A stretch of DNA of 64,000 nt from Parcubacteria group bacterium (GTDB lineage: Bacteria; Patescibacteriota; Minisyncoccia; Phycocordibacterales; UBA2100). The stretch covers positions 9,718 through 73,717 of the forward strand of contig CALRGX010000002.1 in the NCBI GenBank assembly GCA_943358385.1, written 5' to 3'. Positions within the stretch are counted from its first letter, which is position 1; each line of letters opens with the position of its first letter. Both the position numbers and the translations under genes were made by a program. Below the pieces are notes generated by a model. The model searched no databases. It saw only the letters and a list, made by a program, of their open reading frames with translations, and was not told the DNA's origin. This document shows positions 6,593 to 6,995 of this stretch, piece after piece.

Positions 6593-6995
6593 AAAAGCAA
6601 CAACCCGCGCAAGCGGGTTTTGTTGTTTTGGTGACTAACGGTACATTGCAAATGTACTGTAGGGAGTTGAACAGATTGGCGGTGTACGAGCGCAGCAGCG
6701 CTTGTCGCCAATCTGGTGCCCAGAAATTTTTGGAGCGACGGCGAGAAAATTTCGAGGGAAACGACCTACATCACCCAAAAAAAATACAGAGAACAATGTG
6801 CAACATTGTTCGACCCATATTTTTTGTGACTATCGGGAGTTGAAAACCGGAGCCGGTACACAAGACGACACTGAGTGCACGAAGGGGAGTGCTTGTCGGC
6901 GAGGTGGGGTCGCGACCCTTGGCACAAGGAGTTGTGACCAACTCCCGATAGTCACCCAAAAACAACGACCAGCGCAAGCGGGTTTTGTCGTTGCT
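6593..6995 (+). mobile_element. approximately 400-bp element-like insertion downstream of tRNA-His. Boundaries are imprecise direct repeats of the tRNA 3' end plus its terminator hairpin.
   Basis: caactcccgatagtcaccc plus the hairpin gcaacaacccgcgcaagcgggttttgttgtt at 6573-6625 recurs at 6940-6993 (about 85% identity). Inverted copies of the tRNA 3' end lie at 6630-6672 (interrupted by a 20-nt palindrome) and at 6827-6845 (gtgactatcgggagttgaa). The internal motif gagcgacggcgagaaaa at 6727-6743 is shared with the tRNA-Leu repeats. Confidence 0.55.

Follow-up and report, generated by a model that had tools for sequence, protein, structure and literature searches.

An apparently undescribed family of small, folded, guide-bearing elements behind tRNA-His and other gene ends of Patescibacteria

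In the insertion sequences (IS) of the IS200/IS605 type, an internal guide pairs with both the cleavage site and the target site, excision is seamless, and one strand is involved. This transposon-directed target selection and, in group II introns, the pairing of exon-binding with intron-binding sites (EBS/IBS) are the closest known logic for the DNA described here, which lies behind the tRNA-His gene in a 64,000-nucleotide (nt) stretch of a Parcubacteria group bacterium (contig CALRGX010000002.1, positions 9,718 to 73,717 of the forward strand; the whole stretch is hereafter called the window). Positions 6592-6957 of the window hold two tandem units of one element family, U1 (6592-6776) and U2 (6777-6957). 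The reading put forward here, to which a probability of about one half is given, is that they are independently acquired copies of guide-bearing, protein-free insertion elements that act through a single-stranded fold.

The units are bracketed by direct copies of the tRNA-His 3′ end, spaced 366 nt apart (Table 1). An exact 24-nt repeat (6573-6596 and 6939-6962) comprises the last 19 nt of the tRNA and five trailing A residues, and the similarity extends into the terminator hairpin that follows (87% identity between 6590-6627 and 6955-6992). Two inverted copies of the tRNA end lie inside, the second of which (6630-6672) is interrupted by a palindrome at 6638-6660 with arms 6638-6647 and 6651-6660. 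An earlier note on this DNA had described the duplication of tRNA end plus hairpin, resembling an attachment (att) site, with coordinates that are right to within a few bases, as well as the two inverted copies and the palindrome that splits one of them; all of these are present. The 64 kb contain three exact occurrences of the 16-mer AACTCCCGATAGTCAC, at 6574 (+), 6940 (+), and 6826-6841 (−); with three mismatches allowed, 0.41 matches are expected by chance and none of 100 shuffles reaches three.

Both units share the same order of parts. The left part of U1 is 87% identical to the terminator at 6958-6992, which is read as native to tRNA-His because the same sequence follows this tRNA in a relative with an empty site (L145, see below). 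The degenerate distal copy of U1 keeps its pairing with the guide (GTTG/CGAC and GTAG/CTAC), and the corresponding unit of another relative, L144, has CGACCCGATAGTCACCC at this place. In U2, a short hairpin, CCTTGGCACAAGG, stands at the tip of stem P4 in place of the canonical tip. A covariance model of the family, R1, scores U1 with 61.6 bits and recovers U2, which was absent from its training set, at 6802-6964 with 41.1 bits (E = 5e-12). U1 and U2 are different subfamilies bearing the same tRNA-His-specific guide.

Table 1. Coordinates in the window of the tRNA-His locus, of further family copies, and of the RAYT-like gene with its palindromes
Feature	Position	Strand	Basis or remark
tRNA-His (GUG), host gene	6520-6590/6591	+	ARAGORN; Rfam tRNA, 62 bits
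Target segment T, proximal copy: last 19 nt of tRNA-His, C56-C74	6573-6591	+	Direct repeat
U1 left part: A-run, terminator-like hairpin (stem 6602-6619), T-run	6592-6629	+	
U1 guide part b, GGTGACTAA: complement of tRNA acceptor 3′ strand and C73/C74	6630-6638	+	Sequence reading; inverted repeat
U1 side hairpin (the "20-nt palindrome"), between acceptor-complement and T-arm-complement of the guide	6638-6660	+	Inverted repeat
U1 guide part a, AGGGAGTTGAAC: complement of tRNA T-loop and T-stem 3′ strand	6661-6672	+	Sequence reading; inverted repeat
U1 P2/P3 hairpin	6672-6715	+	Inverted repeat; fold; covariance-model alignment
U1 P4 stem	6717-6763	+	Invariant loop of the family, GAGCGACGGCGAG, at 6733-6745
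U1 degenerate distal copy of the tRNA end, CGACCTACATCACCC	6762-6776	+	
U2 left part: A-run, hairpin 6791-6811, T-run	6777-6825	+	Directly 3′ of tRNA-His in L143
U2 guide, GTGACTATCGGGAGTTGAA: perfect 19 nt, exact complement of tRNA-His T54-C72	6826-6844	+	
U2 core: junction AA, P2 (CCGGAG ... CGAGG), long P3, P4 base GGGGTCGCG/TGTGAC	6845-6938	+	
U2 distal copy: exact tRNA-His C56-C74	6939-6957	+	Pairs with the U2 guide in a 17-bp P1
Terminator after the distal copy	6958-6995	+	Read as native tRNA-His terminator
Family copies behind tRNA-Leu (2748-2832)	2833-3300	+	Two full tandem units and a broken third
Fifth family copy, 5S-linked	55720-55872	+	R1, 31.5 bits, E = 1.3e-8
RAYT-like Y1 HUH gene, 221 aa, IS200-like	47681-48346	+	Pfam PF01797, 27.1 bits; motif NHFHL
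Palindrome ATAAAGGACCGACCTTTATA(A/T)	26184-26225, 46482-46502, 46584-46604, 47850-47870, 48326-48346, 62150-62187		

A scan of genomes, one per species, with the pattern TTTNGAGCGACGGCGAGAAA found the core motif in at least 119 loci, compared with about 4 expected by chance as estimated from pattern length and collection size. By record title nearly all of these are Patescibacteria (Paceibacterota, Nomura-, Yonath-, Lloyd-, Taylor-, and Zambryskibacteria, among others), and in 67 of the at least 119 loci the motif lies downstream of a same-strand tRNA gene, at a distance of no more than about 200 nt and typically 95-145 nt. R1 was built from an alignment of 97 copies (A1) and run over the first 100 of these loci, giving 138 matches at E ≤ 0.001; the 111 near-full-length matches with a score of about 36 bits or more, in 89 loci, constitute the analyzed set. 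A same-strand gene for tRNA or transfer-messenger RNA (tmRNA) ends within 450 nt upstream of 80 of the 111 matches (72%), an opposite-strand one in a single case. The hosts have 19 identities—17 standard tRNA types, one ARAGORN 'Stop' call, and tmRNA—and two or more R1 matches occur in 19 loci.

Read from 5′ to 3′, the A1 consensus consists of the 5′ strand of stem P1, a junction (A/G)AG, stem P2 (N-C, closed by G-N′), a GGAG/CGAG internal loop, the P3 hairpin, one or two G residues, a long P4 (GGTCGCG ... CGTGACC) with an invariant loop, and the 3′ strand of P1. The same structure is obtained with RNAalifold and by explicit counting of pairs. Over the 97 copies, paired cells amount to 84%, compared with 67% in shuffles, and the covariation score is 0.446 versus 0.187 in shuffles, none of 500 of which reaches it; slid controls give 0.11-0.14. 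Pair 80:138 is CG in 34 copies, GC in 29, and AU in 22, and a G·U pair at 153:191 is kept in 83 of 97. In P1, G·U wobbles outnumber A·C (81 versus 37), and the fold therefore belongs to the host-gene-sense strand. A kissing interaction of the upstream hairpin loop (CTGC) with the P3 loop (AGCA) was considered and rejected, as it showed no covariation (3.08 versus 3.03 for permuted partners). Rfam 15 contains no match to the core, be it to a group I or II intron or to a known small ribozyme, at E ≤ 10 for the window region or at E ≤ 1 for eight canonical loci, a scan of the whole window at Rfam gathering thresholds returned rRNA and tRNA alone, and literature searches with the loop sequence and with descriptions of tRNA repeats in the candidate phyla radiation (CPR) yielded nothing relevant. 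The family is apparently an undescribed one of small, protein-free, folded insertion elements, roughly 110-185 nt in length, of Paceibacteria-type Patescibacteria.

The relation between an element and its host gene is established by P1. Its 5′ strand, the guide, is complementary to a 3′-terminal segment (T) of the upstream gene; its 3′ strand repeats T in direct orientation and begins right behind the ...GTGAC of the core, which borders the guide-matching sequence on its 5′ side. Contiguous pairing between guide and distal copy averages 4.2 base pairs, compared with 1.5 for permuted partners. The inverted copies of the tRNA end, previously ascribed to repeated or abortive recombination, are instead the conserved P1 5′ strand of each unit. 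Nor is the palindrome a disruption of an inverted copy: in many long-type copies the guide is split by a side hairpin between its acceptor-complement and T-arm-complement parts, a metagenome contig with a U1-like unit (L138) has the hairpin at the same position, and the changes seen in L144 preserve its pairing (G:C to C:G and G·U to A:U, by reading). Intact repeats in tRNA cases begin in the T-loop, at C56, which is 19 nt away from the end assigned by ARAGORN, and in several independent tRNAs the repeat ends exactly at the tRNA 3′ end; short-type copies have a repeat of 3-9 nt, repeat length across the family ranging from 3 to about 60 nt. The element always takes the orientation of the host gene, which stays intact. 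Reverse transcription from mature tRNA was discarded as the source of the copy, given that distal copies carry no consistent CCA (by reading).

Two copies follow tmRNA-like 3′ ends (L072, L027), and copies without a tRNA are located at the 3′ ends of protein genes. The interpretation of the tRNA-His repeats as a scar of site-specific integration consequently stands in part only: the 24-nt repeat and the empty site conform to it, no integrase accompanies them, and a core that also occurs behind tmRNA and protein-gene ends does not represent a tRNA-specific att scar. From the translated sequences, we take the host ends in L042, L089, L029, L059, L128, L039, and L097 to be the zinc-finger C-terminus of a topoisomerase I (topA-like), and the host gene in L123 to encode a XerC/D-like recombinase. 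At protein genes the last 27-60 coding nt appear a second time behind the core, and the guide matches the first ~9 nt of this copy. Within one genome, proximal and distal gene ends are 68-82% identical over 57 nt (100% in L042); their codon differences comprise 45 synonymous and 17 non-synonymous changes, the latter mostly in tails beyond the conserved block as judged by reading of the peptides, and mostly synonymous differences are expected if the incoming copy came from other species. A phylogenetic separation of proximal from distal topA copies was abandoned, 57 nt being uninformative. The guide of L029 forms Watson-Crick pairs with the proximal copy and includes two G·U wobbles with the distal one (by reading). 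In L011, L021, L041, L110, and L039 the distal copy is reduced to 8-10 guide-pairing nt beside a complete proximal gene. The distal copy can thus be dispensed with, which speaks against an intron. It is P1 that selection maintains, and long repeats mark recent arrivals that brought a gene-end copy from a diverged donor. L024 and L104 carry different subfamilies at one shared site, and the presence of the same guide in different subfamilies at one site argues for templated, reprogrammable acquisition of the guide. The hairpin that precedes the element has no U-tract at the topA-type loci L029, L042, and L089 (by reading), and in L029 and L089 a terminator-like hairpin follows the distal copy; a topA-type element would therefore be transcribed. 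As a separate observation, L065 (1429-1577) and L024 (302-450) have nearly the same ~200-nt segment in two unrelated contexts. It comprises half of the upstream hairpin, the element, and the downstream spacer, is bounded in L065 by a 16-nt direct repeat, TAAGACCCAAGGCCTC, and has its junctions in hairpin loops; recent transfer or an assembly chimera could account for it.

Relatives of the window were found via the protein encoded just upstream of tRNA-His (5942-6466), of which three homologues, all in the same gene order, were retrieved. The tRNA-His gene is 100% identical across them. In L145, whose flanking protein is 93% identical, the site is empty and the tRNA is directly followed by one terminator, slightly nearer to the distal (30/41) than to the proximal (28/41) terminator of the window. 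L143 (75% identity) carries a U2-type unit only (R1, 39.2 bits) and L144 (60% identity) a U1-type unit only (R1, 62.4 bits); the window contains both, with U1 nearest tRNA-His. The direct repeats do bracket inserted DNA, as had been proposed, and the comparison with relatives suggested in the earlier note yields an empty site together with many relatives, rather than the same arrangement everywhere, as in a lineage-specific structured spacer. Gain or loss adds or removes exact whole units at this site. Guide and core of U1 are 97.1% identical (133/137) between the window and L144, where flanking genes are 59-63% and the downstream spacer 56% identical; the differences are confined to the region of guide and side hairpin (by reading). 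Metagenome matches to the tRNA-His 3′ half are mostly CCA-encoding contigs without an element: L138 is the sole carrier, and eleven other contigs with an identical 3′ half have none. In two conspecific assemblies nine positions deviate from the window, and all nine lie inside 6777-6975.

Further copies in the window lie behind tRNA-Leu, where R1 matches 2870-3022 and 3047-3197. These units recur with a period of 177-183 nt in the same layout as at tRNA-His, and one conspecific assembly (L002) is without exactly one of them (184 nt). The 17-mer GAGCGACGGCGAGAAAA is found exactly in the tRNA-Leu units and in the tRNA-His insert (2969, 3146, 6733) and forms the loop of a stem in all three; the stem sequence differs between the Leu and His copies with pairing kept. 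Folding of the three units is far stronger than that of shuffled sequence (z = −7.7, −10.5, and −5.4). The fifth copy is embedded in a duplicated 5′ fragment of 5S rRNA upstream of the 5S gene (55912-56019): the first ~24 nt of 5S are repeated exactly (~55737-55760) and are followed by the element body and then by the 5S-like ACACCCGTTTTCATTC.

Alongside these observations of anatomy, covariation, strand-specific fold, linkage to gene 3′ ends, guide-T rule, and absence of an encoded enzyme, the best reading of the family is one of non-autonomous, guide-matched elements acting through a folded single strand. Each element comprises a terminator-like hairpin, the guide, the three-way-junction core (P2/P3 and P4), and a second copy of T, with which the guide pairs so that P1 closes the junction. 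The folded strand might be the read-through transcript of the host gene or single-stranded DNA (ssDNA) of the sense strand; the sense strand of genes co-directional with replication is the lagging-strand template, which bears on the ssDNA option. Within this strand, the target would be chosen by base pairing of guide and T, and insertion would occur at the edge of T, with cutting and joining carried out by a trans-acting enzyme or possibly by the fold itself. Movement between species would carry along the end of the donor gene, including whatever lay between T and the donor's terminator. The host gene end is left behind as an att-like direct repeat, which in recent copies includes the stretch between T and the terminator of the gene.

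A more far-reaching version, which is put forward tentatively, makes the fold itself the targeting and possibly the catalytic device: a ~100-nt three-way-junction RNA or sense-strand ssDNA with a reprogrammable 9-19-nt guide that would insert itself just upstream of its match without any element-encoded protein, copying or carrying the downstream part of the target. If this were true, nucleic-acid-guided mobile elements would gain a new, minimal class, in bacteria whose genomes are very small. The main reading, if right, would mean that Paceibacteria carry abundant protein-free elements that choose their insertion site with an internal site-matching guide and bring a spare gene end that protects the host gene. 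This would be a new way for a mobile element to target essential, conserved genes safely, would account for many odd "tRNA 3′ end duplications" in the genomes of candidate phyla, and would offer biochemistry a very small programmable scaffold. Even on the least exciting reading, the motif is new and widespread, a structured RNA or DNA with strong covariation and no entry in Rfam.

Several points weigh against insertion as proposed here. The mechanism is drawn from anatomy alone and no enzyme was found, the only HUH (histidine-hydrophobic-histidine) enzyme of the window being flanked by a different palindrome family. Repeat-mediated loss alone, starting from a two-unit ancestor, can yield the allele pattern at tRNA-His, and the extreme conservation of the core could reflect a host function and not recent transfer. 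A strong terminator precedes many tRNA-linked copies, so that an RNA form may need read-through. Finally, the 5S-linked copy departs from the order of gene, guide, core, and copy.

Among the other explanations, the one that survives best, unlikely as it is, regards the family as host-beneficial structured RNAs of the 3′ trailer or 3′ untranslated region (UTR) that are transcribed together with the tRNA, tmRNA, or mRNA, vertically inherited, and sometimes lost by repeat recombination; the closing stem would mimic the acceptor/T-arm minihelix, serving for example as a processing, decoy, or stabilizing module. This view is supported by the strong covariation and the conserved G·U on the sense strand, by a core conserved like tRNA between genomes whose flanking genes are ~60% identical, by the maintenance of P1 through selection while the rest of the repeat decays, and by an orientation shared with the host gene in 80 of 81 cases. 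The topA-type loci (L029, L042, L089), whose first hairpin is without a U-tract and which in L029 and L089 have a later terminator-like hairpin, would moreover be transcribed. However, both units are missing from the closest relative (93% for the flanking protein), and more distant ones carry one each, and different ones at that. Two subfamilies share the single tRNA-His site, and L024 and L104 likewise have different subfamilies at one site; a 17-19-nt guide that exactly matches each of many different host genes needs a templated process; and duplicated coding ends that differ by 20-30%, mostly at synonymous positions, point to import across species.

It is more doubtful that the family represents an ssDNA element related to repetitive extragenic palindromic (REP) sequences and their hairpin-forming doublets (REPIN), or derived from IS200/IS605 in the manner of palindrome-associated transposable elements (PATE), and mobilized by the RAYT-like (REP-associated tyrosine transposase) enzyme encoded in the window. 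This Y1_Tnp protein has an intact HUH motif and is conserved across Paceibacterota; its homologues at 45-60% identity number more than 369, and those with names come almost all from Patescibacteria. In the three genomes checked, its gene is syntenic, its neighborhood running RecA, FtsK, further genes, a tetratricopeptide repeat (TPR) protein, and the gene itself, with L10/L12 directly or a few kb downstream. The guide rule, the empty site exact at unit level, and the strand-specific fold all fit IS200/IS605 logic. The enzyme is nevertheless tied to another set of repeats: the 21-nt palindrome ATAAAGGACCGACCTTTATA(A/T), with 8 copies in the window versus 0 expected, occurs in two inverted pairs, once inside the RAYT-like gene, and once at its 3′ end, and may constitute a REP-like family of its own, separate from the tRNA-linked element. 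Around six loci with RAYT homologues R1 finds no adjoining element, the single match lying 9 kb away, and among the open reading frames (ORFs) around ~110 element copies no Y1 gene adjoins a copy. The gene looks like a domesticated one of RAYT type and was set aside as the mobilizing enzyme, for which it is a weak candidate.

More doubtful still is a spread by natural transformation and homologous recombination only, the distal copy acting as a portable right homology arm and the guide merely folding the RNA harmlessly. The 100% identical tRNA would provide a perfect left arm, which makes this plausible at tRNA sites, RecA and RecO are encoded in the window, and the strain differences clustered in 6777-6975 resemble a recombination tract. 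However, topA-type copies with 68-82% identity over 57 nt have diverged too far for RecA-mediated crossover to be efficient, short-type copies lack a right arm that could be used, and the creation of guide and copy at new targets is not explained.

The search for a parent element bears on the remaining alternative. No integrase, transposase, or reverse transcriptase recurs among 1136 ORFs within ~4 kb of ~110 copies, and in the viral collection IMG/VR the canonical core pattern has no match. A looser pattern gave two contigs, L142, which R1 did not confirm, and L141, a viral-classed contig with tandem copies (2850-3319) and no integrase. The neighboring ORFs of L141 are of housekeeping type and, from their translations, presumably encode relatives of serine acetyltransferase, an epimerase, and cytidine deaminase; L141 is probably not a virus, and a viral parent was rejected. 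The full-length, integrase-bearing parent that the earlier note envisaged was found neither around the ~110 loci nor in IMG/VR. The least probable explanation is placed last: a tyrosine integrase acting in trans on tiny att-only elements, akin to cis-mobilizable elements (CIME), or on deletion remnants of phages or integrative elements, with the tRNA T-loop as attB, would account for direct repeats from T-loop to tRNA 3′ end, for tmRNA and gene 3′ ends as further targets, for the replacement gene end carried by the element, and for tandem arrays and an empty site, but it is contradicted by these searches, by the same 75-100-nt core at many targets, the left side of the junction showing no sequence conservation in the loci read, by covariation and G·U pairs indicative of a fold in a single strand, not of a duplex att site, and by short-type copies with a repeat of only 3-9 nt.

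Two features of the rRNA region are recorded in their own right. The 23S rRNA match (51929-55458, +) spans 3530 nt against a 2925-position model and therefore contains ~600 nt of insertions. A tRNA at 55568-55642 (+), between 23S and 5S, scores 45.5 bits with Rfam, and ARAGORN assigns it no anticodon ('tt').

The tRNA introns described in a paper on Patescibacteria are group I introns of the anticodon loop and constitute a different subject, and TIGR-Tas, with its arrays of 36-nt dual spacers, is unlike the tRNA-linked element. Retron non-coding RNAs share a closing stem and two hairpins with the family but differ in that no reverse transcriptase lies near any copy. Miniature inverted-repeat transposable elements (MITEs) are likewise small, non-coding, multi-copy, and polymorphic for presence and absence, and the P1 arms resemble inverted repeats at the ends of the core. 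The earlier suggestion of a MITE-like element with ends that mimic the tRNA accordingly holds for the small non-coding inserts and their mimicking ends, but not for constant terminal inverted repeats (TIRs) or a duplication of fixed length: the "TIRs" copy the host gene and differ from site to site, the repeat varies from 3 to ~60 nt, no parent insertion sequence was found, and the stems covary, which indicates selection on the fold.

With group II introns, especially those of the terminator-targeting class C, the elements share a structured nucleic acid complementary to the insertion site, a position beside terminators, and sense orientation, and their layout of guide, core, and copy of the target 3′ part recalls trans-splicing ribozymes designed for RNA repair. 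In contrast to group I and II introns, they have no Rfam match, a core of only ~75-100 nt, and no reverse transcriptase; the guide pairs downstream and not upstream of the junction, unlike in group II introns, and splicing is not required, since the distal copy is often truncated and the proximal gene is complete at the loci examined. Integrative elements that target tRNA and tmRNA genes resemble the family in the direct repeat of the gene 3′ end from the T-loop onward, the gene kept intact by an element-borne end, the use of tmRNA and protein-gene 3′ ends, tandem arrays, and empty sites. The family differs from these elements and from CIME in its size of only 110-185 nt, the lack of a nearby integrase, the inverted copy (guide) that is always present, and one conserved folded core for many targets, for which the evidence points to a single-stranded fold and not to a duplex att site.

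IS200/IS605-PATE and REP/REPIN-RAYT systems are likewise protein-free extragenic hairpin elements placed after genes, with strand-specific structure. In form, the family further resembles IS200/IS605-PATE in what would be a target set by internal guide pairing beside a hairpin and in a difference between empty and filled sites that consists of whole units, and, as in REP/REPIN-RAYT systems, a RAYT-like gene exists in the genome. This resident gene has its own, different REP-like palindromes, however, and no tnpA is linked to the elements. Unlike in IS200/IS605, the guide measures 9-19 nt rather than 4-5 nt and the target segment is duplicated; and in place of the simple imperfect palindromes of IS200/IS605 and REP, the core of the family is a covarying three-way junction.

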